Shown piece after piece: positions 11,695 through 29,861 of a stretch of 32,000 nucleotides of DNA. Source of the stretch: Flavobacteriaceae bacterium (GTDB lineage Bacteria; Bacteroidota; Bacteroidia; Flavobacteriales; Flavobacteriaceae); assembly GCA_965224465.1 (NCBI GenBank), contig OZ245049.1:1170001-1202000 (forward strand), read 5' to 3'. Position 1 is the stretch's first letter; the number at the start of each line of letters is the position of its first letter. Position numbers and translations under genes: made by a program. The notes beneath the pieces were generated by a model, which saw nothing but the letters and a program-made list of their open reading frames with translations, was not told the origin of the DNA and made no database searches.

Positions 11695-11700
11695 ATCTTC

Positions 11701-12108: not shown

Positions 12109-12124
12109 TTTGATGTTTTATTTG

Positions 12125-12514: not shown

Positions 12515-12985
12515 ACCACCAACACCTCTATATCCACAATAACGAGCAAAACTTGACGTTATTTCCGTAATAGCTACAATAGCGGTTGTAATTATATTTA
12601 TTTTTAAATCCGCTATATACGGGTTCTCCAAGGCATTAATTTCCAGCGGAAAAACACTAAAATTATGGATTAATGATTAATGTTTTCGGTTTGTGAACGG
12701 GCGAAATACGGCATTAAATAAACTGAAAAAACACTCTTTCAAAAAAGAGAGAAATAACATGAAAACATTCTGAAATATGGCGAGTAAAGGACTTAAAACA
12801 AGTGTTTCATATAAAAAAAAAGGATGTAATTACTCCCCAAATGAGTGTTCCTAAAACATTGAAATTACACAGGAGGGTGTTTTAGGAGCTGTTGGTTGTA
12901 ATTCCCCAGCGTTCAGTGCAACAAGACGATAAAATCAGTGGGCCCCCCCGGACCCACGTAATTTTAATCGCTAGGTGTTTTGTGC
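12515..12985 (-). repeat. Degenerate type I intergenic repeat
   Basis: 12515-12640 matches the P end of type I (accaccaacacctctatatccacaataac.agc.aaacttgacgttatttccgtaatagctacaatagcgg...aaatccgctatatacgg). 12760-12900 resembles the type I centre (aacatgaaaa...gacttaaaacaag...acacaaggag..gtttta). The module A end is replaced by other sequence. Confidence 0.6.
12938..12957 (-). terminator. GC-rich hairpin downstream of the PIN-like gene
   Basis: The minus strand reads GTGGGTCC-GGG-GGGCCCAC, an 8-bp stem including one G-T pair, followed by TGATTTTAT. It lies 29 nt past the stop at 12986. It is a striking GC-rich island in AT-rich DNA. Confidence 0.45.
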
Positions 12986-14168: not shown

Positions 14169-14191
14169 AAAGTTTTAGTTTTTCAAATTAA

Positions 14192-15060
14192 GCACAACAC
14201 CTCTATATCCACAATAACCAGCCAAAACTTGACGTTATTTCCGTAATAGCTACAATAGCGGTGTAATACTATTTATTTTTAAATCCGCTATATACGGTAT
14301 ACAGCGCCCTTCAAATATACAAAAAACATCCTTTTTGCACACTAACCTTTTAATTGTTTTTTAGAAACGTTTTCAACTTTAACCGCTGTTTTTTTAGAAT
14401 CTCAACAAGAATACTTGTTCTTATCCTAAACGTGCTGTTTTAATATTAGATAGTATCGTTGTTTTTACGGGGAATATTTAGGCGTATTTATTAGTTTTCA
14501 AGTGTTTACTCCTTTGTTTAGATTGTTTTTTGACGTTTTTAGCGGTGTACAGGGAAGGAATTGGAAAGATTTTGTGAATTTCTTTGAAGTTTGCGAACTG
14601 GAATAGCACCTCCCTAAATAAAGGGAAGAGACATTTTTTTGTACTAAGAAAAAGCAATAGCAAACCACCTTAAAACATGAAAAACAAAAGACTTAAAACA
14701 AGCATATAAATTAAAAAAAAGAGGTAGTCAAACCAAAAAGGACTGTCTTCAAATTATTGAAAATACACAAGGAGCTGTTTTAACTAATAAGCAAACAAAA
14801 AAAACCGTAGTCACGTAATGGGAAACACATGCCAAAATACTGCTAACCAATACTTATCCATATCTAAAAACAGTAAAAATATATCCCCACAAAAGAGCGT
14901 GAGAACAAATGACCTAAAAATAGGTGATATCTATTAAGGTCTTTGTCGATAGCCTCTTAATAAAATCACGCAATCCCCATAGTATCATCTTTTGAGCCAG
15001 CATCCTCAACAGGATGTTCATGCTGGGCGCTACACACCGCATGAACACTTAGTTATTGTG
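14192..15060 (-). repeat. Type I composite intergenic repeat, copy 1 (P module + centre + module A)
   Basis: About 870 bp, collinear with 19529-20398; roughly nine of ten positions are identical by eye. It has terminal inverted 9-mers CACAATAAC (14210-14218) and GTTATTGTG (15052-15060). Internal hairpins: ATAGCGG/CCGCTAT, AACAAG-AATA-CTTGTT, and CATCCT-CAAC-AGGATG (15001-15016). Confidence 0.9.
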
Positions 15061-15069
15061 CATAGTTTT

Positions 15070-15477
15070 TTATTCATTTAACATTATCTGTCCAATAGCA
15101 CCGACTATAAAAAATGTAATACAACTTATTACAAATAGAATGAATTGGGCGATATACATACCAAATGACAAAGTCTCACTTAATAAATTAATAACTAAAA
15201 TAATTGAGGAAGGAATCAATCCGAAAATTATTATCAATGATATTATTAATGCAACAAGTTGCCATCTAGTTTTTTTATTTGAATTTGAGATTCCAGATGA
15301 AAACTTCACTACTGATTGTCCAAATAATATTAAGGATATAATTGACCATTCAGTATTATAAAAGATTGCACTTAGGTTGTTTTCATAGCTTCTAACAATT
15401 AATAATATTATAATTGGGAGCAATGTAAATAAGAATTCAGAGGTTAAAATATATTTTATTGTTTTATCTAATTTCAT
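15070..15477 (-). CDS. Small integral membrane protein (about 4 TM helices)
   Basis: 135-aa ORF that is almost entirely hydrophobic segments. Its start lies 3 nt after the stop of the upstream 287-aa gene, so they form a tight operon. Confidence 0.6.
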   Translation of the reverse strand: MKLDKTIKYILTSEFLFTLLPIIILLIVRSYENNLSAIFYNTEWSIISLILFGQSVVKFSSGISNSNKKTRWQLVALIISLIIIFGLIPSSIILVINLLSETLSFGMYIAQFILFVISCITFFIVGAIGQIMLNE

Positions 15478-15479
15478 TC

Positions 15480-16343
15480 TTAATTATTATGAATTACGTT
15501 AATAACTTCAATTATTTCTAATTTGTCAGAAATTAAGTACCCGTTTCTATTGTATTTTGAAGTTTGTCTAACACGTACATTAAGTGAATCTCCAGGAACA
15601 ACAGGAACTTGACCTGAATGAAATTTCTCCAACCACTCTTGGTGCAATATTTTAACAGTTACTGATTTAGTTCCGTGTTTAAAATTCCAAGCAGACTCAC
15701 CTAAAAAGTCAGGTTTTTTGATTAGATAAATCATTTCAGATTCATTTACTATTTCCTTTTCGGTTAAAGCTTCTTCAACAGCTTCAATGTCTATTTTGGG
15801 AGTTCCCGAGCTTATTTCTTTAACTTCTTTGTTATTACTCTTTAACTCAAAAGACTCATTACCGTTGAGTTTGTCGGTAGAATCATTAATTGAATTTATT
15901 GATTTCGCAAGTTTCAATAAATCTGGTTCTGCATAATTAAAAGTTTCTGTTAATTCTTTTTCATTTGCAATTTCTGAGATAGTAGTTTTTAAGTTCTCTA
16001 AATCTTCAACACTTGATTTTTTATCAGCTATGAATTTTAACGTTTCAGCCCTAGATTCTTCAATATATTCTTCAATTTTTTCGATTTCAGGAGCATTGTC
16101 AATTTGTCCATCTTGACTAATAACAATTGCACTATAAAGCTTTCCAATAATAGAACCTTTTTCAATGTCATCTAATATGATTTTAGATTTCACTGAAGTA
16201 TTGACACTTTCCGCAATTAAGTAATCTAAGTCATTGATTCCTTCAATCATCTCAGCAAAAGACCTAAATAACCTACTAGGATTTTCAGTATCTCTTTCGA
16301 AATCAAGTTTTATCTCAAATTTACTGTTAAATTCTTTTTTCAT
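15480..16343 (-). CDS. Hypothetical acidic/coiled-coil protein, partner of the 4-TM protein
   Basis: 287-aa ORF with typical coding composition. The central part is E/K-rich and the C-terminal ~80 aa look globular. No domain recognised. Confidence 0.6.
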   Translation of the reverse strand: MKKEFNSKFEIKLDFERDTENPSRLFRSFAEMIEGINDLDYLIAESVNTSVKSKIILDDIEKGSIIGKLYSAIVISQDGQIDNAPEIEKIEEYIEESRAETLKFIADKKSSVEDLENLKTTISEIANEKELTETFNYAEPDLLKLAKSINSINDSTDKLNGNESFELKSNNKEVKEISSGTPKIDIEAVEEALTEKEIVNESEMIYLIKKPDFLGESAWNFKHGTKSVTVKILHQEWLEKFHSGQVPVVPGDSLNVRVRQTSKYNRNGYLISDKLEIIEVINVIHNN

Positions 16344-16575
16344 TTTCCACTATTGTTCTTTCTCAGGAAGCGTTTTTAAATTATGCACAACGACCCGGCT
16401 AAGAAATCGTAGGGGAGTTTGAAACTCTGCCCTTTCAATTTACCACTTAGCCAAGCCAAATATTTTTATAATTAATTTTTCTTTTTTCGTTATCAAAATT
16501 TTGGTTTGGCGGTTTTTAATCGAAGCTCTGAACTTCCAATTTATCAACAAAACCCCTATGTTTTTTTAGTCATTG

Positions 16576-19038
16576 TTAGGGCTTCGTGTTTTTATTTATT
16601 GGTATAATATCTTCAATTTTGTCTTTTGAACCACCCTCTTTAAACATATCAGTTTCCTTAATCTCAATAATTTTACAATCTTTGGAGAACCAAATATATC
16701 CAAAAAAGTCTACATCAAATTCAATATTATTATCTAATTCTTCAATGTTTTTACCCCCTTTGATATACTCATCTTTAAGCTCTGTATTTGAATTTAGGTC
16801 AGATATTTTACTGTAAATATGAAGGTTTGGATTAATGTTTTCCATTTCACCCCAACGCTCTTGTGTCTTTTTTGGTAAACCGTCTATTTCTGACCAATCC
16901 CGATGTTTTACCATTGGCTTTCCAGTTTTTTCAATCAAAAACAGCGTATTATGCACCATGGAGTGCCCAGATGTGTAGCTATAGATTGGAATAGAATTAA
17001 ATCGATAATCTTCATTTCCAATTGGTTCGGTTATATTAGCATCCTTGAAATCTTTATGATACTTTATATTAATTCCAAAGCTAATTAATAAATAATCATC
17101 AGAGGAAGGATTTAATTGGCTTACGGCATCAAATATTTGTCCACTAGGCACTTCATATTTTTTGAATTTAGGTAATAAGGAAAGCTTAGTTGCGAAATGG
17201 GTATAATACTCACTTTTAATAGCTTGACCTGTAATTGAATCAGCATTTAAATGATGAACACTAGTATTATCAATAAATGCTTCTCTACTTAATAAAAAAC
17301 GAGTTCCTCTAATAACTTGCATGTATTCACTAATGGAGTCTCTATTACTTTTTTTAATATCAATCTCTGAACTAACCCTGTTTATATCATCATATGCTTT
17401 TCTAATAGAAGAAACTGTATTTGATTTTAAAGCCTCTATTTTTTCTTCTGAAAGTTCAGTAGTTTCTAATGTTTCTTGAAACCCATCTTTTATTTTAGCG
17501 GCTAATTTTTCAATATAAACTAACGGAGGTTCGACATTAATATTTTTGCAAAATTGTTTGGTAATTATATTTAAACCAAGTTTTTCTAATAAATCAGAAT
17601 TTGAAAGATGTTTTTCAATTATTTTACTAAATACTTTCAAGTTATCCTGCCATTCTTTTTTTTCACTCTGCTTTTTAGGTATTTGTGGAAGACCATGTAA
17701 TGGATGGTTACCATAATAACCAAAAGTTATATAGAGTCTAAGAAATAATAATCCAAGATATTCGCATATTACAAATTTCACATCTCTTTTATTATTCATA
17801 TTATCAAATCCCAAGTCTTTAAACCAAAAGCGTATAACTATGGAAGTGCTATGGAATCCTATTCCTAAATACGTGAAAAATAACTCAAATATACTTTGGG
17901 GATTTTGAGGTACTAATACAAAGTGAGGTGGTTGTGATTGTGTGTAAAGCCAAGCTTCTTTTAATGTTAAATATTGTTCTTTATGCATAAGGTAAGCACC
18001 AAGAGCAGTTTGTAATTGAATAAAGTACTCTCTATTTTGTGAAAACTTTTTTCGTTTTTCAATACTAACTTTTGTCTCTTTAAAGTTGTCATCATGCTCA
18101 GGATACGGAACCTTTAAATGGAAATCACAATATTGGTGTGAATTTCCCCAAAATTCTAAAACCTTTTCAGTTCTTCCCGATTCAATAACTGCTACAAGGT
18201 TTCTCCAAATAGCATTATAAGATTCTTGATGTAAAAATTGAGGTGCATGCTTCCCATAGTTCTCTGTAAAAAACACCGAGCCTATAAATGATTCAAATCT
18301 TTGGTAATAAAACTCCTCATTGGCTTTTAGGTAGGTAATTACGATATCAAATGTTCCATTATATATTTCAGGAGGGTATTGAACATATTCTTCGTTTTTT
18401 TGGTCTACAAATCTTAAGAAACCAAAAACACGATAGATATATAAATCACGAATATTATTTTCTAGTTTACGGTCTTTATTATTAATTGAATAGATAAAAA
18501 GGTCAATAATAGGGTGCCAGTAGTCAAGTATTTTTTCTTTTATTCCCCTCGAATTTTTTAGTTTTTCTCTTTCTTTAGTGTATTTGTCAAAGGTAAATCT
18601 GTTAGAATATAATTCGAACAAGTCTTGACCATTTTGATATTTTAATAATAGATTTAGATAGGGAAAAAATAGAATTAGTAGTGTTATTACAGAGATAAAA
18701 GCAACGATAAATACTCCTATTGACATTACAAAACAAAGAACAGTTAACCCTACAGATATTCTCAAATTCCAAATAAATAGTTTATGAATTTTTTCTTTCT
18801 TAAACTGATAAATAATGTGAGTGGATTTATATTGCTCATTTAACTTACTTACAGTTTGGATTATTAAAGGATATGCAATACCTAGTATTGCAGGAACAAA
18901 GGCGAGAACAATTTTAAACATTGGATTGTCAATGTATAGCCTTATAATTAAATCTTTGAGGGGTTGAAAAACGGCAACTAAAAGACCATATGATATGGAA
19001 TATATCTCTTTAATTATTTCAATAGTTTCCATATTCAT
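16576..19038 (-). CDS. Large membrane-anchored protein of unknown function
   Basis: 820-aa ORF. The N-terminal ~130 aa contain about 4 hydrophobic helices; the rest is soluble with no recognisable motif. Its stop codon is embedded in GCCCTAAC on the coding strand. Confidence 0.7.
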   Translation of the reverse strand: MNMETIEIIKEIYSISYGLLVAVFQPLKDLIIRLYIDNPMFKIVLAFVPAILGIAYPLIIQTVSKLNEQYKSTHIIYQFKKEKIHKLFIWNLRISVGLTVLCFVMSIGVFIVAFISVITLLILFFPYLNLLLKYQNGQDLFELYSNRFTFDKYTKEREKLKNSRGIKEKILDYWHPIIDLFIYSINNKDRKLENNIRDLYIYRVFGFLRFVDQKNEEYVQYPPEIYNGTFDIVITYLKANEEFYYQRFESFIGSVFFTENYGKHAPQFLHQESYNAIWRNLVAVIESGRTEKVLEFWGNSHQYCDFHLKVPYPEHDDNFKETKVSIEKRKKFSQNREYFIQLQTALGAYLMHKEQYLTLKEAWLYTQSQPPHFVLVPQNPQSIFELFFTYLGIGFHSTSIVIRFWFKDLGFDNMNNKRDVKFVICEYLGLLFLRLYITFGYYGNHPLHGLPQIPKKQSEKKEWQDNLKVFSKIIEKHLSNSDLLEKLGLNIITKQFCKNINVEPPLVYIEKLAAKIKDGFQETLETTELSEEKIEALKSNTVSSIRKAYDDINRVSSEIDIKKSNRDSISEYMQVIRGTRFLLSREAFIDNTSVHHLNADSITGQAIKSEYYTHFATKLSLLPKFKKYEVPSGQIFDAVSQLNPSSDDYLLISFGINIKYHKDFKDANITEPIGNEDYRFNSIPIYSYTSGHSMVHNTLFLIEKTGKPMVKHRDWSEIDGLPKKTQERWGEMENINPNLHIYSKISDLNSNTELKDEYIKGGKNIEELDNNIEFDVDFFGYIWFSKDCKIIEIKETDMFKEGGSKDKIEDIIPINKNTKP

Positions 19039-19070
19039 TTAACTTGTTCAATGGTCAGTGCATGAGCCCT

Positions 19071-19240
19071 AACACTAGGGCTAATAGCAGTACGACCGAA
19101 GGGTAGTATTGATTTTAGCTAATGTTGGGTGTCAGTACTTCGATTTTGTTATTCATATTGCTCAAATCTATAAAAATCTTTTTCTAGGAAGCACTATAGT
19201 ACTAGAAAAGAACCAAATAATAGGAGGATATTTCGTAACA
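19071..19240 (-). repeat. Module C (shared 5' leader), copy 1, containing an attC-like imperfect palindrome (19066-19130)
   Basis: Homologous to 21304-21470. The plus strand reads GCCCTAAC-ACTAGGGCTAATAGCAGTACGACC-GAA-GGGTAGTATTGATTTTAGCTAAT-GTTGGGT. A TAGATTTG -7-like box lies on the minus strand at 19163-19170. Confidence 0.7.
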
Positions 19241-19528
19241 GTATTTAATTCTATTTGATGTTTATTCGGAAATAAACGTAGTCTAATTAGATACAGAAAA
19301 CAACCTTTTATACTGATTATCAACTAATTACTTGATTTTGTCAAAAAAATCAACTAACTTGACTAAGTTTTTAGAACATTCCAATGTTTACAAGAGCGAT
19401 CTTGTACAGTGTAACTGTTAAAAACTTGGTTGAGACTTCAACTAACTATAATCCGTATAAAAACTCCAAATTTATCCGCAACAGCTCCTCAATTTTGTTA
19501 CGAAATCCAATTTCTTTTCTTGTATTAC

Positions 19529-20398
19529 ACCCAACACCTCTATATCCACAATAACAAGCCAAAACTTGACGTTATTTCCGTAATAGCTACAATAGCGGTG
19601 TAATACTATTTATTTTTAAATCCGCTATATACGATATACAGCGTCCTTCAAATATACAAAAAACATTCTTTTCGCACACTAACCTTTTAATTGTTTTTTA
19701 GAAAAGTTTTCAACTATAACCGCTGTTTTTTAGAATCTCAACAAGAATACTTGTTCTTATCCTAAACGTGCTGTTTTAAAATTAGTTAGTATCGTTGTTT
19801 TTACAGGGAACATCTAGGCGTATTTAGTAGTTTTCAGGTGTTTACTCCTTTGTTTAGATTGTTTTTTGACGTTTTTAACGGTGTACAGGGAAGGAATTGG
19901 AAAGATTTTGTGAATTTCTTTGAAGTTTGCGAACTGGAATAGCACCTCCCTAAATAAAGGGAAGAGACATTTTTTTGCACTAAGAGAAAGCAATAGCAAA
20001 CCACCTTAAAACATGAAAAACAAAAGGCTTAAAACAAGCATTTAAATTTAAAAAAAAGAGGTAGTCAAACCAAAAAGGACTGTCTTCAAATTATTAAAAA
20101 TACACAAAGAGCTGTTTTAACTAATAAGCAAACAAAAATAAACGTAGTCACGTAAGGGGAAACGAATGCCAAAATACTGCTGACCAATACTTATCCATAT
20201 CTAAAAACAGTAAAAACATATCCACACAAAAGAGCGTGAGAGCAAATAACCTAAAAACAAGTAGTATCTATTAAGGTCTTTGTCGATAGTCTCTTAATTA
20301 AATCTCGCAATCCCCATAGTATCATCTTTTGAGCCGGCATCCTCAACAGGATGTTTATGTTGGGTGCTACTCACCGCACGAACACTTAGTTATTGTGT
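19529..20398 (-). repeat. Type I composite intergenic repeat, copy 2
   Basis: Collinear with 14192-15060. ACCCAAC lies at 19529-19535, the hairpin CATCCT-CAAC-AGGATG at 20338-20353, GTTGGGT at 20359-20365 and GTTATTGTG at 20389-20397. It abuts the dinD stop (20403). Confidence 0.9.
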
Positions 20399-20402
20399 AG
20401 CG

Positions 20403-21239
20403 TTATTTTAGTTTTTTGGGATTTTTCAAACTTTTCTTTTCATCACTTTTTAAACGTCTGTCAATTTTACTTATGTCTTCTTCTGGAGATAAATTTTCAG
20501 GTGTAATTCCACGTGAAATTAACGTGTTTCGTACAGATTTATTATTCGTAATATGTTCCCTTGAAATTTGACTTTCAGTTCTCATATTATTCTCTTTTGC
20601 ATTGAAGATTGTAATTTCAGTAGCGAAATCTTTTGCTTTTAAAAGTATGGTAGGCATAAAATCAGCTAATGGCTTATTTTTAATTCCCCATCTATCTTTC
20701 ATTTGTTGAGTTGTCTTCCCAAATAAAGCAGTATCTCCTTTACTCCTGATTAGGGCGAAATTCTTATTGCCTCCAGTTTGTTCAAATATTATTTGAGATA
20801 ATTCTTTTTCAGTAGATTTTAATTTCTCTCTAGCTAAAACTCTTTCGTGCTCAAGCATTTTTTCCTCAATAAGTTCGGCTTTTCTAGTTTGAATAGCAAA
20901 ATAACGTTGTGCAAATGCTATTGTATTTTTTCTAGGGTCTCCGTTTTGAGTTATTAAGTAACAAGCAAATCTTGTCAACATTATATCTTCAATCTCTCTT
21001 TCACTTCCTGAGCCTAGAGTAACCATTTTGTTGACATCAACAAAATGGTCATCTATTTGCTGTTCAGAAACTTCACAAGCAGTTTTAGCTTTGTTAATTA
21101 CTAAGTTAAAGTTTCTCCATTCGTTATAGCCTAATAAATGTTGTAAGTCTCTTGCCATCCAAAATTCAACTCCATCAGATGTTTTATTGGAATGTGATTC
21201 AAAATTTTCGGTAAGGCTATGTATTATAGATGTTTTCAT
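20403..21239 (-). CDS. dinD: DNA damage-inducible protein D (DinD family)
   Basis: 278 aa. By eye, WMARDLQHLLGYNEWRNFNLVINKAKTACEVSEQQIDDHF...IMLTRFACYLITQNGDPRKNTIAFAQRYFAIQTRKAEL aligns closely with E. coli DinD (WSARQLGKLLGYSEYRHF...[36 protein letters not shown]). Confidence 0.8.
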   Translation of the reverse strand: MKTSIIHSLTENFESHSNKTSDGVEFWMARDLQHLLGYNEWRNFNLVINKAKTACEVSEQQIDDHFVDVNKMVTLGSGSEREIEDIMLTRFACYLITQNGDPRKNTIAFAQRYFAIQTRKAELIEEKMLEHERVLAREKLKSTEKELSQIIFEQTGGNKNFALIRSKGDTALFGKTTQQMKDRWGIKNKPLADFMPTILLKAKDFATEITIFNAKENNMRTESQISREHITNNKSVRNTLISRGITPENLSPEEDISKIDRRLKSDEKKSLKNPKKLK

Positions 21240-21303
21240 TCTTTAAAAATATGAATTTCAATTGTAATATCGTTGTTTTTCCTCATTTCTCCTAATGCTA
21301 CAC

Positions 21304-21470
21304 AACACTAGGGCTAATAGCAGTACGACCGAAGGGTAGTGTTGATTTTAGCCCTAGTGCTGGGTGTCAGTGCTTCAATTTTGTTATTCATATTGCTCAA
21401 ATCTATAAAAATCTTTTTCTAGGAAGCACTATAGTACTAGAAAATAACCAAATAACAGAAGGATATTTCC
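21304..21470 (-). repeat. Module C, copy 2, with the better-preserved attC-like palindrome (21300-21365)
   Basis: A 12-bp perfect inverted repeat, CACTAGGGCTAA (21306-21317) and TTAGCCCTAGTG (21348-21359), with imperfectly paired inner arms. On the coding strand it is flanked by ACCCAGC and GTTGTGT. A TAGATTTG box lies at 21398-21405 (minus strand). Confidence 0.7.
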
Positions 21471-22075
21471 ATAGACAGCTACAATAGCGGTGTAATTATA
21501 TTTAGTTTTAATTCCGCTATATACGGTATACAGCGTCCTTCAAATATACAAAAGACATCCTTTTTGCACACTACCCTTTTAATTATTTTTCAGAAAAGTT
21601 TTCAACTTTAATCGCTGTTTTTTAAAATCTCAACAAGAGTACTTGTTCTTATGATAAACATGCTGTTTAATATTAGAAAGTATCCTTGTTTCTACGGGGA
21701 GCATCTAGGCGTATTTAGTAATTTCAGGTGTTTGTTTATCTACTTACAGTCCCAAATGACCGATATAAATAGTTAGTTTACATTCTAGTGTTATTGAAAA
21801 CAGAACGATAGCCACGCAAAGAAAAATGCATACCAAAACGCTACTAACCAACAATAATCAGTATCTAAAAACAGTAAAAACATATCCCAACAAAAGAGCG
21901 TAAGAACAAATGACCTAAAACAAGTAGTATCTATTAAGGTCTTTGTCGATAGCCTCTTCATTAAATCTCGCAATCCCCATAGTATCATCTTTTGAGCCGG
22001 CATCCTCAACAGGATGTTTATGTTGGGTGCTACGCACCACACGAACACTCTTAGTTATTGTGTGTTGGCTTTATT
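21464..22075 (-). repeat. Type I repeat variant (P end truncated, centre replaced by an inverted family-B segment)
   Basis: 21470-21735 matches the type I P region from agctacaatagcgg onward. 21749-21815 is the reverse complement of the family B 3' half (ccaaatgaccgatataaatag...aacagaacgatagcc). 21850-22062 is module A (hairpin 22001-22016, GTTGGGT 22022-22028). Confidence 0.8.
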
Positions 22076-22530
22076 TGTTATTATTCTTGTTCAAACTCCA
22101 CATTTACATCAAAATATTTAGGGTTATTATTTATTTCAAATAAGTTTCCGGAAATTTCAATTCCTTTGAAATCGGGTAAAATCCTAACATTTTCATTGTT
22201 TACTTTTTTTATTTTATATGGAAATAAATATCTTGATTTAAATCTAATCATATCAGCCATAGGATTATCTTTGGTCAAAGTTGTATCTTTATTTTTCTCA
22301 GATTCTGCCAAGCCTTTAGGACTTATTTTTACAGAAAACCTTTCTCTATTGAATGTCGTATTATAAAATTTATTAAAATCAGGAATACCATTATCTTTAT
22401 CTTTTTTCATATTTTTTGTTTTGTTAGATAACAATTCTAATTCTTTAATATTCTGTCCTTTTAATTTTTCGCCAAATAATTTTAATTCTGAAACATCATC
22501 AAAAGTGTAAATGATTTTCATTTCAAATTT

Positions 22531-23520
22531 TAGGGTTACCTATTTAAATCTCACTAATATTTTGTTTTTCTGAAAGGATTTTTTACTTTTAGAAAAAGAA
22601 AGCTATGAAAATATTAAAAGAATTATCTCGTAAAGAATTTCACACTAAGTTTGGAGAAGAGAGTTTATGTTTATCTTTTTTATCATCTGTAAAATGGGAA
22701 GAAGGTTTTTCCTGTTTTAAATGTAAAAACACAAAGTTTTTAAAAGGAAAAAGAGCGTATAATAGACGTTGTACAAAATGCGGATATGATGAGTCTCCAA
22801 CTGCGAACACTCTATTTCATAAAGTTAAATTTGGTATTGTAGAAGCCTTTGAAATGACTTATGATATAGTTACCAGTAAGAAAGGAGCGAATAGTATTTG
22901 GTTAGCAGAAAGGCACGGTGTTAAACAGATGACAGCTTGGTTGTTTAGAAGAAAAGTACAAGAAGCAATGAAAAGTAGTGAGAAATATCCTTTAGAAAAA
23001 GAAGTTCATGTAGACGAGTTTGAAATAGGTACACCAAAAAAAGGAGAGCAAGGACGTAGTAAATCAGCTACTAAAATTAGAGTTGTAATTGCCATTGAAA
23101 ATAGAAATGGTAAACCAGGCAGAGCATACGCAAAGGTGATAGAAGATTATAGTTGCAAATCATTAAAACCAATATTTGAGAAACATATAAAGTTTGATGC
23201 CAATATAGTTACAGATGGCTGGTCAGGATATAAACCTTTAAAAAAGAACTTCCCAAATTTAACACAAATATTATCTAATAATGGTGAGAATTTTAAGATG
23301 CTACATTTTCAGATAAGAAACTTTAAAAATTGGTTAAGAGGCGTTCATTCGTATTGTGAGAAAGAGTATATAAATCAATACATTCAAGAGTATTTCTATC
23401 GATTTAATCGACTCAATTTTAGAGAAAACATCTTAGAAAACCTACTAAAAAGAATGTGTAAAGAAAAACCAATAACCTATAAATCAATCAAATATATTGC
23501 GACTTAAGAGGGTAACCCTA
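22531..23520 (+). mobile_element. IS1595-family insertion sequence
   Basis: Inverted ends TAGGGTTACC (22531-22540) and GGTAACCCTA (23511-23520). It is flanked by a perfect 8-bp duplication TCAAATTT (22523-22530 and 23521-23528). It carries a single transposase ORF. Confidence 0.85.
22605..23507 (+). CDS. IS1595 family transposase (N-terminal zinc ribbon + DDE domain)
   Basis: 300 aa. CFKC...CTKCG zinc-ribbon pairs, then VHVDEFEIG, VTDGWSGY and a C-terminal YIQEYFYRFNR region typical of ISXO2-like/IS1595 transposases. Confidence 0.85.
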   Translation: MKILKELSRKEFHTKFGEESLCLSFLSSVKWEEGFSCFKCKNTKFLKGKRAYNRRCTKCGYDESPTANTLFHKVKFGIVEAFEMTYDIVTSKKGANSIWLAERHGVKQMTAWLFRRKVQEAMKSSEKYPLEKEVHVDEFEIGTPKKGEQGRSKSATKIRVVIAIENRNGKPGRAYAKVIEDYSCKSLKPIFEKHIKFDANIVTDGWSGYKPLKKNFPNLTQILSNNGENFKMLHFQIRNFKNWLRGVHSYCEKEYINQYIQEYFYRFNRLNFRENILENLLKRMCKEKPITYKSIKYIAT

Positions 23521-24080
23521 TCAAATTTTTTAGATATTGAATCTGCTTTAATGTACAAACTGAAATTCTCTAATTGTTTTATTTTATCTTGTTTTTCCTT
23601 ACTTAACTTAGATATGCTGTCTTTTTTTGCATTTAAAAATTCTGAAAAAATAATTAAAGTATCTAACTGCTTATTATTTTTTCCTTCTTTAGTGTTCTTT
23701 CCCATTTTCATCATTTCAGATAGGTCAAACCCTAAACTATACCTTCCACTTCCATTAGTTTCAAATTTTGTTTCTTGAACAATTTCACAACTTGTTAGAA
23801 TGAACAATGAAATGATAAATACTATGTTAATTTTCTTCATTTATTTCGGTTTTACGCTTGTTTTTAGCTTACACACAACGATTTGTATAAGAACAATAAG
23901 GGATTAAAATGTACTCTATTTTCCGTTTATTACTTAGTGAAATTTACAATTTTTCTTTTAAAAACAGATACGAAAAATTGTAAATTTTGCGGACTTTGTA
24001 AAATGTACTAAACTTTGATTTAAGCACCAAACCCCATATTATTTTTACACGTTGTTGAACTAAACCTAAAGGTAGATTTT

Positions 24081-24835
24081 ACACCCGCTGCGCAAAGTCT
24101 CCCGACTTTGAGCCTTGTTTTCCCTAATATATTTTTATCGTAAAAAAAATTAAAATAGCTCAACAAACAGCCGATGTAGTAGCAGTCATAAAATGTATCT
24201 TATGTGCAACGAATAACTAATTAAGAGGTCATTTTACTATGAATGAAAACATGAAATATTACTCTAGGAATATAGGAATCAAAATAATAGGTATCGTTTA
24301 TCTATTTAACCGTTTAAATACTATTGTTTTGAGGTATTCAAAAATTCAACTATTATAACTTTACTAGCCGGCTATTTTGGGTACTCCAAGGGTCGGGATA
24401 TACGCTCATCTCTTCTGTATTTTTAGATTGGAGTCTCTCCGTTACACCAATCTAAAAAAAACTAAAGGGTAACCGCAGCTATCCCTAACGTAAATGAGTA
24501 TTGAGATGTTACATGTAAGAATGAAGAAATAAGAGAGGATGTAAAATACATGAATGTCCTAATTTAAATAGCCATACAAATGTTTATAAAACGCATGCCA
24601 AAAGCGCTGCTGACCAATACTTATCCGTATCTAAAAACAGTAAAAATATATCCCCACAAAAGAGCGTGAGAGCAAATAATTTAAAACAAGTGATATCTAT
24701 TAAGGTCTTTGTCAATAGCCTCTTAATAAACCTCGCAATCCCCATAGTATCATCTTTTGAGCCGGCATCCTCAACAGGATGTTTATGCTGGGCGCTACGC
24801 ACGGCACGAATACATAGTTATTGTACATAATACTT
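24081..24835 (-). repeat. Type II composite intergenic repeat, copy 1 (module E + REP-like element + module A)
   Basis: About 750 bp, nearly identical to 26267-27015. It contains hairpin CAAAGTC-TCCC-GACTTTG (24093-24110). It also has a CCAAGGGTCGGG...GCTATCCCTAACG element with an internal 12-bp-stem hairpin (TTTTTAGATTGG/CCAATCTAAAAA). Module A hairpin lies at 24766-24781. Confidence 0.9.
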
Positions 24836-24842
24836 TCTTTAT

Positions 24843-25163
24843 TCAGAATCCAAATCCGAACGGTTTTTTCCATTTCGTTATGGTTTTTAATTCTGTTGGT
24901 ATTTCCCAAATATCCAATTCCATTTTCCAATCAGTTTTATATCCTTCTGCTTTGGGGTCAAATTTTAGTTTCTCATTCTTAAATCCGTTATCCTTGAATA
25001 TATTCACAATGTGTTGTAATAGATTCCAAACGGGTTTTTCGTATTCTTCTATTGTTTGCGCTGTAAATTGGAAATAAAAGCCAGATTCCGCTCTCCAAAA
25101 TATTAGAGAAGCAGTTCCTTTGTCACATTTCGGACGGTCAATAACCCAATACAATTGGTCCAT
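24843..25163 (-). CDS. Hypothetical 106-aa protein (cassette gene; its 5' end is duplicated at 29786-29861)
   Basis: ORF MDQLYWVIDRPKCDKGTASLIFWRAESGFYFQF... with coding-like composition. Module A starts right after its stop. No domain recognised. Confidence 0.55.
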   Translation of the reverse strand: MDQLYWVIDRPKCDKGTASLIFWRAESGFYFQFTAQTIEEYEKPVWNLLQHIVNIFKDNGFKNEKLKFDPKAEGYKTDWKMELDIWEIPTELKTITKWKKPFGFGF

Positions 25164-25567
25164 CGTCTCAGTTGTAATTATCAGCTAAGAAGTATTGCTC
25201 CGCTGAATTCAGAGTTTTAAATTTCTCAAAATTAGGAATTATTTATTCGACATTCTTTTCGTCCTCATTGAATGCAAATTCGATGAAATTTCTCTTAATA
25301 AGGAATATTTTATGTGGTCGGATTATCATTTTTTTCGCATTATGTACAACGCTTAGCTAAGCGCAGTACAAGTATAAAAGTACAAACTTTCAAGCTTGCA
25401 ATTAGCCAAAGCTTTTTATTTTGTTTTATCTTCTTTTTCTAAGACCAAATCAAAAAATGTACCTCCCGTGAGACTTCGTGTTGGCGGTCTTCGTTAAATG
25501 TACTGAACTTTTGGATAATCACAAAACCCGCATTGATGTTAGGTGTATTGTACTTTCGCACTTTTAT

Positions 25568-25852
25568 TTATTCTACCGTTAATTTTATTGTTAAACCCAA
25601 TGCACTTGCTAAAAGAGCAAAATTTGACATTCGCATATCCTCTCCGTTTTCAATTCGTGAAATGTATGGTCTTTTCTTTCCAACTTTTTTTGCCAGATTT
25701 TCCTGACTCAAGTGTAATTCTTTTCGACGGTTTTTTAGGATTTCTCCGAAGTAATATGAAAATGCTTCTTCTTTAAATTTTTGACGTTCAGAAGATCCTT
25801 CCTTTCCGTAACGTTGTGCGATGAGCTCTTTTGCGTTTATTGATTTTCCCAT
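25568..25852 (-). CDS. XRE-family helix-turn-helix antitoxin (HigA-like)
   Basis: 94 aa. LKNRRKELHLSQENLAKKVGKKRPYISRIENGE is a classic Cro/C1-type HTH. Its start lies 3 nt after the stop of the upstream toxin gene. Confidence 0.8.
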   Translation of the reverse strand: MGKSINAKELIAQRYGKEGSSERQKFKEEAFSYYFGEILKNRRKELHLSQENLAKKVGKKRPYISRIENGEDMRMSNFALLASALGLTIKLTVE

Positions 25853-25854
25853 GA

Positions 25855-26193
25855 TTATTTTTCCTTTAAATACTCAATTAATAATGATTCTGCTTTTTTG
25901 ATAGCCTTTTTATAATCTTTGGTAGATTTTTTTTGGAAACCATATAAGCACACAGCTTTTGTGGATTCGGTAAAATTTAAGTGGTCAATAGCAAAAATTA
26001 TGATTCGATATTCATTTCCCGATTTGATTCGTAATTCATAGAATTGAGTGGACTTTAGTTTTTTCAAGAAGTTTGAGTTAATTATTTTAACGTCTCCAAT
26101 AATTTCTAATAGCTGAAAAAACTTCAAGGTAAATTTCTCATTTTGTTTATCCACAAATTCAAGACATTCCTCGGTGATATTTATATCTCTCAC
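25855..26193 (-). CDS. RelE/HigB superfamily toxin (Gp49-like)
   Basis: 112 aa with a GTG start. FYELRIKSGNEYRIIIFAI...AVCLYGFQKKSTKDYKKAIKKAESL matches the Gp49/HigB pattern (..ElR...g...yRi.f......v.l.gF.KK....). The toxin-first order is typical of higBA. Confidence 0.7.
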   Translation of the reverse strand: MRDINITEECLEFVDKQNEKFTLKFFQLLEIIGDVKIINSNFLKKLKSTQFYELRIKSGNEYRIIIFAIDHLNFTESTKAVCLYGFQKKSTKDYKKAIKKAESLLIEYLKEK

Positions 26194-26200
26194 CCTGCAA

Positions 26201-26220
26201 ATGTAACGAATAAGTTACAT
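26201..26220. promoter_or_regulatory. Palindromic operator-like site upstream of the toxin-antitoxin pair
   Basis: ATGTAAC-gaataa-GTTACAT, a 7-bp perfect inverted repeat 8 nt upstream of the GTG start at 26193. Confidence 0.4.
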
Positions 26221-26266
26221 AATTTAAATAATTATCATTAGAGTTTGTTTTTTTGCATGAAGTACA

Positions 26267-27015
26267 ACATCCGCTGCGCAAAGTCTCCCGACTTTGAGCC
26301 TTGTTTTTCCTAATATATTTTTATCGTAAAAAAAATTAAAATAGCTCAACAAACAGCCGCTGTAGTAGCAGTCTTAAAATGTATCTTATGTGCAACGAAT
26401 AACTAATTAAGAGGTCATTTTACTATGAATGAAAACATGAAATATTACTCTAGGAATATAGGAATCAAAATAATAGGTATCGTTTATCTATTTAACCGTT
26501 TAAATACTATTGTTTTGAGGTATTCAAAAATTCAACTATTATAACTTTACTAGCCGGCTATTTTGGGTACTCCAAGGGTCGGGATATACGCTCATCGCTT
26601 CTGTATTTTTAGATTGGAGTCTCTCCGTTACACCAATCTAAAAAAACTAAAGGGTAACCGAAGCTATCCCTAACGCAAATAAGTATTGAGATGTTACATG
26701 TAAGAATGAAGAAATAAGAGAGGATGTAAAATACATGAATGTCCTAATTTAAATAGCCATACAAATGTTTAGAAAACGCATGCCAAAAGCGCTGCTGACC
26801 AATACTTATCCGTATCTAAAAACAGTAAAAATATATCTCCACAAAAGAGCGTGAGAGCAAATGACCTAAAAACAGGTGGCACCTATTAAGGTCTTTATCA
26901 ATAGCCTCTTAATAAACCTCGCAATCCCCATAGTATCATCTTTTGAGCCGGCATCCTCAACAGGATGTTTATGTTGGGCATACTCAGCACACGAACACTC
27001 TTAGTTATTATACAT
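26267..27015 (-). repeat. Type II composite intergenic repeat, copy 2
   Basis: Collinear and near-identical to 24081-24835. Module A hairpin lies at 26952-26967 and GTTGGGC at 26972-26978. It abuts the stop of the 27020 gene. Confidence 0.9.
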
Positions 27016-27019
27016 AGTT

Positions 27020-27925
27020 TTATTTTGATATAAGTCTTAGTTCTAAACTTAATTTTGTATTAACACTTAGATTATTTTTCATTCCAGATATCAAATTATT
27101 ATTGAAATATAGAATACTACTTACAATACTTTTCTCGATTTCAGAATATTCAATTTTTTTAATACTCTCAGGTTTCTTCTTTACCCCATATCTAACTTTA
27201 GCAAATCTTATTCCCTTAGGATTAGGTTTATTATGTCTAGATTTTATTTTAAAATTGCAAATTTTTCCTGTTTTATTTATAACAAAAGTAATAAAAAAGC
27301 TTACATCATTATCTAATTTAGAGTAATCGATATAGTACATCATAGTTTTATTAAAAGAAGTGTATAAACAGTCAATTAGACAATTATCATCAAATTGAAT
27401 ACCTTCAAATTTCGGAGGTATATCTAATTCCTCAATTAAATAAACTTTCTTATAATTTTTCTCCTTTCTATTCAAAACCTCAGAAACATGAGAATTGTCA
27501 GCAGGGATTTCTTTTAAGATTATTTTGGATCCAGTATAATTTTCTACTTTTTCGATTTGCAGAATAATATTATTAAAAAAAAGGAAAACTTTATCATTTT
27601 TTGTCAAATAAAAATAGGCGTGATTACCAATTGTAATCTCGTTAAAACGATTTACACTAAACTTTTTGTTTTCTAAAAAACTAAGATCATTAGGCTTGTT
27701 ACTTGTAAAGATTTGATTTATTCCGAAATCAAAAATTAAATCAATGAAACTTTGACTCATACCTTCTATTTCATCTTTATCAAGACCCCTTCCTACAAAA
27801 CTGCTGTATGTACAGTCAATAACTTTCCATTTCCCTTCAAGAGTTATATTCCCTTCACCTTTAGCTAAACATGAGGTCGTAAAAACTATATTAAATAGTA
27901 ATAAAAATAGATATTTAAAATTCAT
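27020..27925 (-). CDS. Lipoprotein with a possible TonB-C-like C-terminal domain
   Basis: 301 aa. The signal peptide ends FTTSC (lipobox). The C-terminal segment ELDIPPKFEGI...FFITFVINKTGKICNFKI resembles the TonB C-terminal fold pattern; this resemblance is weak. Confidence 0.6.
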   Translation of the reverse strand: MNFKYLFLLLFNIVFTTSCLAKGEGNITLEGKWKVIDCTYSSFVGRGLDKDEIEGMSQSFIDLIFDFGINQIFTSNKPNDLSFLENKKFSVNRFNEITIGNHAYFYLTKNDKVFLFFNNIILQIEKVENYTGSKIILKEIPADNSHVSEVLNRKEKNYKKVYLIEELDIPPKFEGIQFDDNCLIDCLYTSFNKTMMYYIDYSKLDNDVSFFITFVINKTGKICNFKIKSRHNKPNPKGIRFAKVRYGVKKKPESIKKIEYSEIEKSIVSSILYFNNNLISGMKNNLSVNTKLSLELRLISK

Positions 27926-27951
27926 TATTCTTTGTTCTTTTTTTAATTATT

Positions 27952-28262
27952 GCTAACACCTCTATATCCACATTAACAAGCCAAAACTTAACGTTATTTC
28001 CGTAATAGCTACAATAGCGGTGTAATTATATTTATTTTTAAATCCGCTATATACGGTATACAGCGTCCTTCAAATATACAAAAACATCCTTTTCGCACAC
28101 TAACCTTTTAATTATTTTTTTATAAAAGTTTTCAACTTTAAACGCTGTTTTTTAAAATTTCAACAAGACTACTTGTTCTTATGATAAACATGCTATTTTA
28201 ATATTAGATAGTATCGTTGTTTTTACGGGGAACATTTAAGCATACTTAGTAGTTCTCAAGCG
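27952..28262 (-). repeat. P module (cassette-5' part of the type I repeat), isolated copy
   Basis: gctaacacctctatatccacattaacaagccaaaactt.acgttatttccgtaatagctacaatagcggtg...caaatatacaaaaa...ctcaacaag..tacttgttctta... matches 14192-14500 and 19529-19840. It starts 26 nt upstream of the ATG at 27925. A TATATTTG box lies on the minus strand at 28071-28078. Confidence 0.85.
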
Positions 28263-28269
28263 CTTACAT

Positions 28270-29719
28270 CCGCTGCGCAAAGTCTCCCGACTTTGAGCCT
28301 TGTTTTCCCTAATATATTTTTATCGTAAAAAAATTTAAAATAGCTCAACAAACAGCCGCTGTAGTAGCGTTTCGTTCTATTTTTTAACAACGATAGAACG
28401 TAAAATAAACTATTTATATCGGTCATTTTGGATGGTAATTGTATTAAATTTCGAAAAACACCTAAGGTACTCCCGATAGAATGGTTGCTTTCTCCATCTC
28501 TATGTAATGTAATAATTTGTTTTAAATCCATTGGATCAAGTGTAGACAACAAATCAGTTAAACTTGATCTTTTAAAGTGGCACAAGTTGAACCATAAACA
28601 CTGGCACTAACCGACCATAATCCGTGGCACAAATAGAACCGTGGTAGTCAGATGTTCTGTTTCACAAGATAATTGATGAGTACCATTACTCTTTATCAGG
28701 CAGTTTTTAAATTCGATTATTTCACCATTCTTTTCTGTTAATATTATTTCAGAGTTTAGCGAAATACTTATTTGTATTGCATAGTGTTTATGAGGTAAAT
28801 TACCCGCTGCGCAAAGTCTCCCGACTTTGAGCCTTATTTCCCCTAATATATTTTTATCGTAAAAAAAATTAAAACAGCTCAACAAACAGCCGCTGTAGTA
28901 GCCTTTCATTCTGTTTTTTAACAACGATAGAACGTAAAATAAACTATTTATATCGGTCATTTTGGATGGTAATTGTATTAAATTTCGAAAAACACCTAAG
29001 GTACTCCCGATAGAATGGTTGCTTTCTCCATCTCTATGTAATGTAATAATTTGTTTTAAATCCATTGGATCAAGTGTAGACAACAAATCAGTTAAACTTG
29101 ATCTTTTAAAGTGGCACAAGTTGAACCATAAACACTGGCACTAACCGACCATAATCCGTGGCACAAATAGAACCGTGGTAGTCAGATGTTCTGTTTCACA
29201 AGATAATTGATGAGTACCATTACTCTTTATCAGGCAGTTTTTAAATTCGATTATTTTACCATTCTTTTCTGTTAATATTATTTCAGAGTTTAGCGAAATA
29301 CTTATTTGTATTGCATAGTGTTTATGAGGTAAATTACCCGCTGCGCAAAGTCTCCCGACTTTGAGCCTTATTTCCCCTAATATATTTTTATCGTAAAAAA
29401 AATTAAAATAGCTCAACAAACAGCCGCTGTAGTAGCCTTTCGTTCTATTTTTTAACAACGATAGAACGTAAAATAAACTATTTATATCGGTCATTTTGGA
29501 TGGTAATTGTATTAAATTCCGAAAAACACCTAAGGTACTCCCGATAGAACGGTTGCTTTCTCCATCTCTATGTAATGTAATAATTTGTTTTAAATCCATT
29601 GGATCGAGTGTAGACAACAAATCAGTTAAACTTGATCTTTTAAAGTGGCACAAGTTGAACCATAAACACTGGCACTAACCGACCATAATCCGTGGCACAA
29701 ATAGAACCGTGGTAGTCAG
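28270..29719. repeat. Tandem direct repeat, 534-bp unit, about 2.7 copies
   Basis: ccgctgcg recurs at 28270, 28804 and 29338, an exact 534-bp spacing. The track ORFs 28607..29119 and 29141..29653 are offset by 534 and nearly identical. Each unit holds module E, the family B 3' half, an HTH-like ORF start, GTGGCAC-type iterated motifs ending ...GTGGTAGTCAG, and a ~180-nt gene-fragment-like piece. Confidence 0.9.
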
Positions 29720-29785
29720 TACCATCTTTTGAGCCGGTATAGTCAACACTATATTTATACTGGATGCTACGCATCGCACGAACAC
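29720..29785 (-). repeat. Module A fragment with a variant hairpin, truncated on both sides
   Basis: taccatcttttgagccggTATAGTCAACACTATAtttatactggatgctacgcatcgcacgaacac is collinear with the canonical tatcatcttttgagccggCATCCTCAACAGGATGtttatgttgggtgctac.caccgcacgaacac. Confidence 0.75.
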
Positions 29786-29861
29786 CCGCTCTCCAAAATA
29801 TTAGAGAAGCAGTTCCTTTGTCACATTTCGGACGGTCAATAATCCAATACAATTGGTCCAT
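29786..29861 (-). pseudogene. Truncated duplicate (first 25 codons) of the 106-aa cassette gene
   Basis: MDQLYWIIDRPKCDKGTASLIFWRA matches 24843..25163 and is then fused to module A sequence. The upstream 29862-30255 is homologous to 25164-25560. Confidence 0.8.

Follow-up and report, generated by a model that had tools for sequence, protein, structure and literature searches.

Why should the same non-coding module of 166 nt, terminating in an imperfect palindrome, stand in front of two unrelated genes? This question is raised by a stretch of 32,000 nt from a Flavobacteriaceae bacterium (contig OZ245049.1, positions 1,170,001 to 1,202,000; the whole of it is called here the window), in which the module precedes a dinD-like gene and a gene coding for a protein of 820 amino acids (aa). 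An earlier note on this DNA had compared the palindrome with the attC sites of integrons, the textbook system of gene capture and shuffling, which is IntI-dependent and nearly confined to Proteobacteria; it had also considered a leader common to both genes. The results described below indicate that the palindrome is probably the minimal (around 60 nt) junction element between the cassettes of an integron-like array on the chromosome of an uncultured member of the Flavobacteriaceae, and the attC-like reading is largely supported as far as architecture and position are concerned. The module as a whole is better read as the 3' part of a cassette with no open reading frame (ORF), which bears a promoter-like box, together with the junction element of that cassette.

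The 166-nt module and its palindrome

The features on which the argument depends are the following (here and throughout, a slash within a motif marks a cassette boundary, and S1 is the palindromic element):

21304..21469, minus strand: module copy 2, promoter-like part plus S1, joined to a truncated long junction element at around 21464-21470
21306..21367, minus strand: S1 copy 2, putative minimal junction (attC-like) element, ACACCCAGC...CACTAGGGCTAA...TTAGCCCTAGTG, the last base being the G of G/TT
21398..21405, minus strand: -7-like box TAGATTTG of copy 2, matching the Bacteroidota -7 consensus TAnnTTTG
19073..19132, minus strand: S1 copy 1, lacking 2 nt of the left arm; it begins ACACCCAAC, complementary to TTGGGTGT at 19534, and ends at G/TT
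19163..19170, minus strand: -7-like box TAGATTTG of copy 1, matching TAnnTTTG
19073..19534, minus strand: ORF-less cassette C5, with 5' end TTGGGTGTA at 19534, a unique, non-coding stretch of around 300 nt and, behind it, module copy 1 with S1 at the 3' end
19038-16576, minus strand: 820-aa gene, no family in Pfam, PADLOC or NCBIfam
16576..19072, minus strand: 820-aa cassette C4, 5' TTAGGGCTC at 19072, 3' AAGCCCTAA at 16584-16576, overlapping the stop codon
21239-20403, minus strand: 278-aa DinD-like gene; Bro-N in Pfam (7.8e-10), PDC-S13 in PADLOC (2.6e-115), named DNA damage-inducible protein D by many sources
20393..21305, minus strand: dinD cassette C6, 5' TTGTGTAGC at 21305, 3' GCTACACAA at 20401-20393

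When the window is compared with itself by blastn, 19071-19234 and 21304-21469 are 94% identical over 166 nt, in agreement with the earlier note, and no third copy is found in the window by nhmmer or short-word blastn. Both copies terminate in the palindrome (60-62 nt), which is recovered by a repeat search as two arms of 31 nt (21300-21330 and 21335-21365, 77% complementary) and ranks first among the short-range inverted repeats of 20.4-30.4 kb. In copy 2, read on the coding (minus) strand, the outer arms CACTAGGGCTAA and TTAGCCCTAGTG pair perfectly over 12 nt around the centre CCCTTCGG, and the left arm of copy 1 lacks GG (a 2-nt deletion with respect to copy 2). The end motifs that the earlier note had pointed out are also present, the left end being ACCCAAC in copy 1 and ACCCAGC in copy 2, and the right end GTTAGGG and GTTGTGT, respectively. 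The palindrome lies around 34 nt (copy 1) and 66 nt (copy 2) before the ATG of the next gene. Homology between the two copies breaks off at ...GTG/TT, and the last two bases of copy 1 (19071-19234) are the invariant TT that opens cassette C4. The genes behind the two copies, both on the minus strand, are unrelated to each other (BLASTP E = 2).

Palindromes of attC sites measure around 57-141 nt and have L''/L' arms with extrahelical bases. The palindrome of the module has a comparable size (60-62 nt), its arms include GCTAA and TTAGC, and copy 1 shows a bulge of 2 nt when its cassette is circularised. The ends of copy 1 (ACCCAAC...GTT/AGGG) agree with RYYYAAC and GTTRRRY, and the start of its own cassette gives GTTGGGT, with an 8-nt complement between ACACCCAA and TTGGGTGT; those of copy 2 (ACCCAGC and GTTGTGT) match the attC core consensus in 6/7 positions each. 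The placement is also that of an attC site: S1 stands at the 3' end of a cassette, the cassettes are delimited at G/TT, and the downstream ends are complementary across the boundary.

Both strands were folded as single-stranded DNA, a check that the earlier note had proposed. Copy 2 reaches -14.5 kcal/mol on the coding strand and -16.9 kcal/mol on the other one (z around -4; 0/200 shuffles equal it) and, as RNA, -30 kcal/mol (z -5.7). Copy 1 folds weakly in the context of the array (z -1.4 to -2.8; z -1.7 for the sequence of the C5 site). When the 3' end of C5 is joined in silico to its own 5' end, the site becomes a single hairpin that has 18 bp and a 2-nt bulge, with -14.6 kcal/mol (z -4.7) for the top strand and -17.3 kcal/mol (z -5.6) for the bottom strand; the hairpin is continuous only in this circular topology. 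The indel of copy 1 is this 2-nt bulge, so that the bulged bases anticipated from the sequence do appear.

Cassette C5 begins directly behind a complete long junction element. Within its module part, the order is the TAGATTTG box, then ACACCCAA/C (the complement of the start of C5 itself) and then the palindrome. The box is found on the minus strand at both positions for which it had been described, around 30 nt upstream of the palindrome and within a 67-nt stretch that is identical between the copies; on the coding strand, the stem of the palindrome is not followed by a T-run. The unique part of C5 contains, at 19316-19344 (minus strand) and around 150 nt upstream of TAGATTTG, a sigma-70 promoter close to consensus, TTGACA-17-GATAAT (11/12); scanning for sigma-70 promoters and terminators is uninformative for Bacteroidota. 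Copy 2 is the same unit as the end of C5, fused to a truncated long junction at a region of resemblance between the two sequences (TTACGGAAATAAC versus CTATGGAAATATC). An ORF-less unit stands ahead of any cassette that follows it in the array, and so takes the appearance of a leader shared by dinD and the 820-aa gene.

The module is independent of the gene located downstream. DinD proteins are 78-93% identical across many Bacteroidota, and the module is absent from six dinD loci of other genomes (Kordia antarctica, two Polaribacter metagenome-assembled genomes (MAGs), one JGI contig, one ENA contig and Tenacibaculum finnmarkense; protein identity 89-93%, DNA 81-89%). In these loci, the DNA is homologous to that of the window from only 6-30 nt upstream of the ATG up to the stop codon or a few nt past it, and dinD is found alone among unrelated genes or within a type I restriction-modification operon. 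The module is thus not conserved upstream of dinD orthologues, as a gene-specific element of the 5' untranslated region (UTR) would be; what stands of the common leader is that the module precedes both genes, and an ORF-less cassette with its junction describes it better. The dinD of Kordia antarctica keeps the cassette ends (...ACGTT/GTGTAGCAT ... ATGCTACA/), which suggests that the inverted ends travel with the cassette, and the stretch in front of it is similar to a long junction's 3' end (TTATGGAAATAACAGCAATTTCAG versus TTACGGAAATAACGTCAAGTTTTG).

Other searches were made with the module and its parts. The S1 palindrome has no match in viral contigs (exact 26-mer) or in GTDB representative genomes and JGI metagenome contigs (purine/pyrimidine-degenerate patterns). 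Matches in plasmids (blastn of the spacer) and phages (blastn of the dinD region with module copy 2, not copy 1) are restricted to the coding part of dinD. No Rfam family corresponds to the module at gathering or permissive thresholds, a scan of 18950-21550 giving noise.

Some observations concern dinD itself. In Tenacibaculum finnmarkense (CP116303, 6091-14282) it lies between hsdS and hsdR of a type I restriction-modification system, which agrees with the PADLOC match of the window protein to a type I specificity subunit (1e-48). A perfect 13-bp inverted repeat, ACCATTTTGTTGA CA TCAACAAAATGGT, is located inside the coding region (window 21022-21049) and is conserved in all six dinD loci of other genomes, according to reverse-strand BLAST matches. 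In the ENA contig (ERZ25039505 contig_8442, 9000-11000), a Gp49/HTH toxin-antitoxin pair is directly followed by dinD; both are flanked by copies of a different repeat, an imperfect palindrome with the sequence TTCCGCTCGGTCGCAA...TTGCGCACCrTAAAC, and by a leader, TTCCCAAyrCACTTTwATCAATAAAA, that occurs repeatedly, and this locus may be a cassette array of a different type.

Cassette ends and junction elements

In most cassettes, TT+N9 follows directly on the G that closes one junction, and N9 returns as its reverse complement, followed by AA, just before the next junction (TT+N9 ... N9'+AA). The rule is obeyed by eight of the ten cassettes of the window and, approximately, by the three cassettes of a related MAG (Flavobacteriaceae NORP167, NVRM01000012.1; locus L001 in what follows), which carries the same long junction element. 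The pairs of ends in the window are given below, a 9-mer being called unique if it is unique in the 32-kb strand and located at the predicted spot:

PD-T4-9 cassette, minus strand: 5' TTGGTGGTA (12522), 3' TACCACCAA (11108); exact, unique 9-mer
Apparent PIN-like cassette, minus strand: 5' TTGTGCTTA (14197), 3' TAAGCACAA (12988); exact, unique 9-mer
287-aa plus 135-aa cassette, minus strand: 5' TTGTGCATA (16390), 3' TATGCACAA (15064); exact, unique 9-mer
dinD cassette, minus strand: 5' TTGTGTAGC (21305), 3' GCTACACAA (20401); exact, unique 9-mer
820-aa cassette, minus strand: 5' TTAGGGCTC (19072), 3' AAGCCCTAA (16584); 8/9
ORF-less cassette C5, minus strand: 5' TTGGGTGTA (19534), 3' GACACCCAA (19133); 8/9
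HigBA cassette, minus strand: 5' TTGTACTTC (26267), 3' AAAGTACAA (25556); 8/9
DUF4274 cassette, minus strand: 5' TTGTACATAAT (25349), 3' ATTATGTACAA (to 24821); run of 11

In a matrix test of 5' against 3' ends, the ends being set by the conserved flanks alone, six 5' ends match best the 3' end of their own cassette (10-12/12), with L001 pairs at 12/12 (run of 13) and 10/12. The best non-cognate scores also reach 10/12, and the sixth pair (L6023/L6684, 10/12) thus lies inside the non-cognate range; in the seventh cassette (301-aa, 27956/27008) the own pair scores 8/12, no better than several non-cognate pairs. The relation between N9 and N9' is the core (G/TTRRRY) and inverse core (RYYYAA/C) logic of integron cassettes, extended to 9-13 nt and specific for each cassette.

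The junctions found between the cassettes of the window are conserved and non-coding, and their length goes from around 60 to around 860 nt. Apart from S1, the following were delimited:

19535..20392, minus strand: long junction, type A, 858 nt; 5' part D7 (TAACTAAGTGTTCG...CATCCTGTTGAGGATG...), conserved -7 box TTTTGTATATTTGAAG, end GAGGTG/TT
14198..15055, minus strand: second full type A long junction, 94% identical to 19535-20392
16391..16575, minus strand: junction S2, 185 nt, behind the 820-aa gene; palindrome GGCTTGGCTAAG...CTTAGCCGGGTC, end G/TT
25350..25547, minus strand: junction S3, 198 nt, behind the HigBA cassette; GTACTGCnnTTAGCnnnGnG/TTG in common with S1
30048..30261, minus strand: junction S4, array head element directly behind the MSEP-CTERM gene, homologous to S3
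12979-12523, minus strand: junction element of 457 nt

Type A is the commonest junction, with partial copies elsewhere in the array. D7 is a block of 68 nt in the 5' part of the long junctions, present in seven copies in the window, and the -7 box of these junctions (TATATTTG) is a candidate promoter; the block of type A that contains it is conserved between the window and L001 amid sequence that is otherwise diverged. The S family (S1-S4) has GGCTAA ... GTACTGCnnTTAGCnnnGnG/TTG in common, and S1 shares with S2-S4 both GTACTGCnnTTAGC...G/TTG and the arms GGCTAA and TTAGC. Type A elements end in GAGGTG/TT (four copies), S1 in CTAGTG/TT (two copies), and S2, S3 and S4 in GTCG/TT or AGCG/TT. The variant B junctions end in GCGGrTG (three copies); their boundary is certain only to 1-2 nt, and G/TA stands in place of G/TT in two of these copies.

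The D7 pattern has no match in viral or metagenome contigs and a single one, L001, in the genome collection. A hairpin inside D7, CATCCT-GTTG-AGGATG (window 20340-20360 and six other copies; L001 5105-5141 and 6714-6750), covaries: it reads TATAGT..ACTATA in the copies at 29718 and L001b, with compensatory changes in 3/6 pairs, and 2/500 shuffles score as high. In L001a and in the copy at 11025 the arms are hybrid and do not pair, as if crossovers had taken place in the GTTG centre.

Three other ideas about the junctions were discarded. That every junction has at its 3' end a significant palindrome with an ACAyC...GrTGT closing stem does not hold, as the 3' ends of type A and of L001 fold no better than shuffles. 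The long spacer was considered as a separate ORF-less cassette starting from GTGTT inside D7, and no complementary inverse core is seen by eye in its 3' end. Finally, the junctions do not seem to have been inserted into pre-existing palindromes, given that the arms flanking one junction are generally non-complementary, the pairing being between both ends of one cassette.

A mechanism may be proposed for this anatomy. A putative site-specific recombinase encoded elsewhere in the genome would cut at G/TT, with a crossover somewhere within GTT, and the cassettes would move as circles made of the cassette and its own junction, excision joining the junction to the 5' end of that same cassette. In the circle, the inverse core ACACCCAA would pair with the core TTGGGTGT and, together with the palindrome arms, would produce one long imperfect hairpin (R''/R' stem plus palindrome) which, folded in vivo as single strand, could be the substrate on which recombination takes place, in the way of attC. 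With an active promoter, the hairpin would also become part of the 5' UTR of the cassette located downstream, and the ORF-less cassette would be a promoter able to move. The module may therefore have a promoter/5'-UTR role and a junction role together.

The array, its flanks and related loci

The array and the genes it contains, besides those already given, are as follows:

8889..30261, minus strand: cassette array (window 8.9-30.3 kb, around 21 kb), at least 10 cassettes of unrelated genes with repeated non-coding elements between them
193-aa and 135-aa genes: PD-T4-9 A and C (PADLOC 8e-82 and 3e-59)
14150-12986, minus strand: apparently frameshifted gene with 11 stop codons; PIN-like by eye alone, a label without support from family searches
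15056..16390, minus strand: cassette C3, 287-aa and 135-aa genes, LAPAL family (287-aa) and weak PDC-S42; 5' TTGTGCATA, 3' TATGCACAA
146-aa gene at 22058, next to IS1595: no family in Pfam, PADLOC or NCBIfam
Gp49/HigB and helix-turn-helix (HTH) genes (HigBA): toxin-antitoxin pair
106-aa gene: DUF4274
301-aa gene: no family in Pfam, PADLOC or NCBIfam
8889-10896: IS66-family insertion sequence with TnpB and TnpC ORFs, inverted repeats GTAAGCGTACGG and an 8-bp target duplication GCTTATTG
22605-23507: IS1595 transposase gene, which interrupts the array

In the frameshifted cassette (12986-14150, minus strand), the intact part is a C-terminal ORF of 164 aa, and it is the N-terminal part that looks PIN-like. 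The IS66 element was inserted 12 nt inside a cassette start, TTGTGCTTATTG, behind a short junction (D7 plus around 200 nt), and the array continues for around 340 nt beyond it, to position 8550 approximately, where it adjoins hrpB. The head of the array adjoins the 3' end of an MSEP-CTERM sorting-domain gene (TIGR04286, 1.6e-159) whose frame is open to the edge of the window, and its tail faces the convergent hrpB.

Related to the non-coding content of the array, a Flavo-1 RNA (Rfam RF01705, 56 bits) is located at 8647-8719 on the minus strand, which is that of the array, in the last 340 nt or so, between the final partial junction and hrpB; a scan with Rfam detects no Flavo-1-like match inside the full long junction. 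Three tandem repeats of 534 nt, 98% identical, occupy 28270-29719, and each one holds a 170-aa ORF that matches no family. Within them there is an 86-nt repeat which also occurs in housekeeping intergenic regions (2103, 3935 and 5706) and, inverted, in a junction element (21744-21811).

Two MAG loci are related to this array. The long junction of L001 (around 940 nt) is conserved with that of the window in the first 250 nt and the last 130 nt approximately, including the -7 box block. Two of its three junctions end in GGGTG/TT, and the third one (L6023) has G for the first T, which is the mismatch of its pair in the matrix test. A short junction of 145 nt (4112-4256) contains a long imperfect palindrome and behaves like the C5 site when circularised (z -4.3). 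The cassettes of L001 look like lipoprotein or TPR proteins.

The second locus, in another Flavobacteriaceae MAG (NVSY01000023.1; L008), has the closest HrpB (93% identical) and an array adjacent to hrpB at 3100-13077, on a contig that runs for more than 50 kb further. Here the genes downstream of hrpB are on the minus strand, have no precomputed Pfam match and belong to cassettes that differ from those of the window. The junctions read ...CCG/TTAGCAAAC..., ...CCG/TTGGCAAAC... and ...ACG/TTACCTGCAA..., and the cassette 3' ends GTTTGCTAA/, GATTTGCTAA/ and TTGCAGGAA/. The junction elements measure around 40 to 540 nt, often opening with CACCTTATAA, and by eye some four or five of the seven cassettes fit the rule. 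Two more distant relatives of hrpB (L009 and L010) show no array of this kind, their similarity to the window being limited to hrpB plus a short IS66 fragment in L009; the genes downstream of hrpB in L009 are on the plus strand, and L010 has no repeat structure of the array type.

Competing explanations and known systems

Several observations weigh against the palindrome being a junction element of an integron-like array. No tyrosine recombinase, integrase or other site-specific recombinase was detected with Pfam, NCBIfam or PADLOC among the approximately 35 scanned ORFs of the window or in the flanks of the array (four small plus-strand ORFs, 13494-13907, 15056-15361, 22058-22366 and 30170-30451, were left out of the Pfam search), so the mobility of the cassettes is putative; the recombination-type enzymes in the scanned ORFs of the window are the IS66 and IS1595 transposases, and the scanned ORFs of L001 contain no recombinase. 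The inter-cassette sites are not all structured and of attC size, the other junctions having 185, 198, 457 and around 860 nt, and the structure of the 3' end of type A on its own is not significant. The rule of the ends fails in the 301-aa cassette (27956/27008) and in the 146-aa one (22058, next to IS1595), and the base that follows AA is C, T, A or G, with no conserved C. Copy 2 has AGC instead of AAC as inverse core, and its arms are perfect, with no bulge. The sequence ACACCCAAC is ambiguous, given that an ACACCy box, complementary to the GGTG of the junction ends, also opens other junction elements (e.g. AACACCTAG at 12979, TACACCTAAC at 25547 and CACCTTATAA in L008); such a box could account in part for the 8 nt that match the C5 5' end. 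As for the promoter-like box, TAnnTTTG occurs in the window about as often as expected by chance (56 found against 54), and inspection by eye shows no clear -33 TTG beside TAGATTTG. Only two copies of S1 and three array-bearing genomes are known.

Part of this evidence also bears on a stricter interpretation, in which S1 is a genuine integron attC site and the array a sedentary integron array or a cluster of attC sites that has no integron-integrase (CALIN), with IntI encoded elsewhere. The ends of copy 1 and the R' sequence GTTGGGT of its own cassette, the 60-62 nt with a bulge, and the ends of the 820-aa cassette (GTTAGGGC and GCCCTAAC), close to classic core sites, speak for it; toxin-antitoxin and defence cassettes are typical of sedentary integrons (bioRxiv 10.1101/2024.07.02.601686); CALINs without integrase are common, and a review lists Bacteroidota among the integron-bearing phyla. 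However, the intI that heads a complete integron together with attI and Pc was not found among the scanned ORFs, the head of the array adjoining the MSEP-CTERM gene and its tail hrpB, and the sister sites of the same array have 185-860 nt (around 940 nt in L001). The cores are specific for each cassette over 9-13 nt and do not follow a consensus, and for Bacteroidetes the IntegronFinder 2.0 paper gives only In0 elements from earlier work plus one complete integron (Salinibacter). The size, end motifs, bulge and cassette-boundary position invoked by the earlier note are all present, and the lack of a recombinase in the scanned ORFs, the sister junctions and the base after AA do not fit; a genuine attC site is considered unlikely. 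A transcribed leader, that is, a promoter with a 5'-UTR hairpin (operator, attenuator or mRNA stabiliser) copied before two genes with no role in recombination, would explain the perfect TAnnTTTG box some 30 nt upstream of the palindrome in both copies, the strength of the RNA hairpin (-30 kcal/mol) and the position of the element 34-66 nt before the ATG. Nevertheless, the homology stops exactly at G/TT as in the other junction types (leaving aside the two variant B junctions with G/TA), the own ends of the downstream cassettes pair across this boundary, DinD homologues elsewhere have no module, no regulator gene is linked to it, the stem is not followed by a T-run, and the -7 motif is no more frequent than expected by chance. 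Such a leader alone is regarded as quite improbable.

It could also be thought that the module is a plain segmental duplication, a gene-conversion tract or an insertion similar to a miniature inverted-repeat transposable element (MITE), with no function of its own. There are just two copies, 94% identical and 2.2 kb apart, and copy 2, being fused to a truncated long junction, looks like a product of illegitimate or homologous recombination. But the flanks are unrelated on both sides, terminal inverted repeats and a target duplication of the MITE type are missing (contrary to IS66, with its inverted repeats and 8-bp duplication), both copies are at cassette boundaries with their 3' edge at the array-wide G/TT, and S2-S4 are diverged relatives at other boundaries. 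A simple duplication at two sites, which would have undermined the comparison with attC according to the earlier note, is in accordance with the number of S1 copies and in conflict with these relatives and flanks, and this explanation is considered very improbable.

The reading as a junction element of an integron-like array leads to a wider proposal, which is put forward tentatively, being plausible but somewhat less than an even chance: an undescribed cassette system without integrase (with a trans-acting or novel recombinase) could exist in Flavobacteriaceae in parallel to integrons, characterised by G/TT bounds, cassette-specific core and inverse-core complements of 9-13 nt, junctions that go from a 60-nt hairpin to 0.9 kb with a promoter, and chromosomal banks of anti-phage genes at different loci in different genomes. 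A literature search gave no published description of such arrays in Flavobacteriia. The array would represent, in marine Flavobacteriaceae, a stock of anti-phage genes with integron cassette logic, a putative promoter per junction and no adjacent integrase found. If this is true, either the substrate range of integron-type recombination is much wider and more plastic, up to 'attC' sites of 0.9 kb, or a second and independent machinery evolved the same solution. The G/TT+N9 ... N9'+AA rule would then be a simple one for mining cassettes and new defence genes in Bacteroidota, such as those of the 820-aa, 301-aa and 146-aa proteins.

Compared with the attC sites and cassette arrays of integrons (sedentary chromosomal integrons and CALINs), the array of the window shares the cassettes delimited at G/TT, the TT... 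start complementary to the ...AA inverse core, the imperfect palindrome of around 60 nt with bulged bases, the ORF-less cassettes and the co-oriented unrelated genes, including a toxin-antitoxin pair and anti-phage systems. It differs in having ordinary chromosomal genes as flanks instead of IntI and attI, junctions of 60 to around 860 nt (around 940 nt in L001), the long ones with their own conserved -7 box, a complementarity that extends over 9-13 nt peculiar to each cassette, in place of a 7-nt consensus, with the base opposite G not conserved, and a host family in which integrons are essentially unreported.

Closer parallels exist for some of its parts. In the oral Treponema integrons, according to bioRxiv 10.1101/427781, ORF-less cassettes bounded by the recombination sites of the array provide a promoter downstream; the motif of the window is instead a putative promoter of the Bacteroidota type (TAnnTTTG), and the integron status of its array is putative. 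The rAID-1 arrays (Ross et al., bioRxiv 10.1101/471110) belong to the same phylum and are likewise made up of small genes, accessory or defensive, between which lie repetitive sequences that their authors called 'reminiscent of integrons'. They are headed by an XerD-like recombinase and contain orphan interbacterial immunity genes, whereas in the window the repetitive intergenic sequences accompany anti-phage and toxin-antitoxin genes and no XerD-family recombinase was found, a comparison made by description. Sedentary integrons acting as anti-phage stores depend on IntI and have canonical attC sites, according to bioRxiv 10.1101/2024.07.02.601686, unlike the atypical junctions of this Flavobacteriaceae array; both have in common defence systems carried as single cassettes in a chromosomal array.

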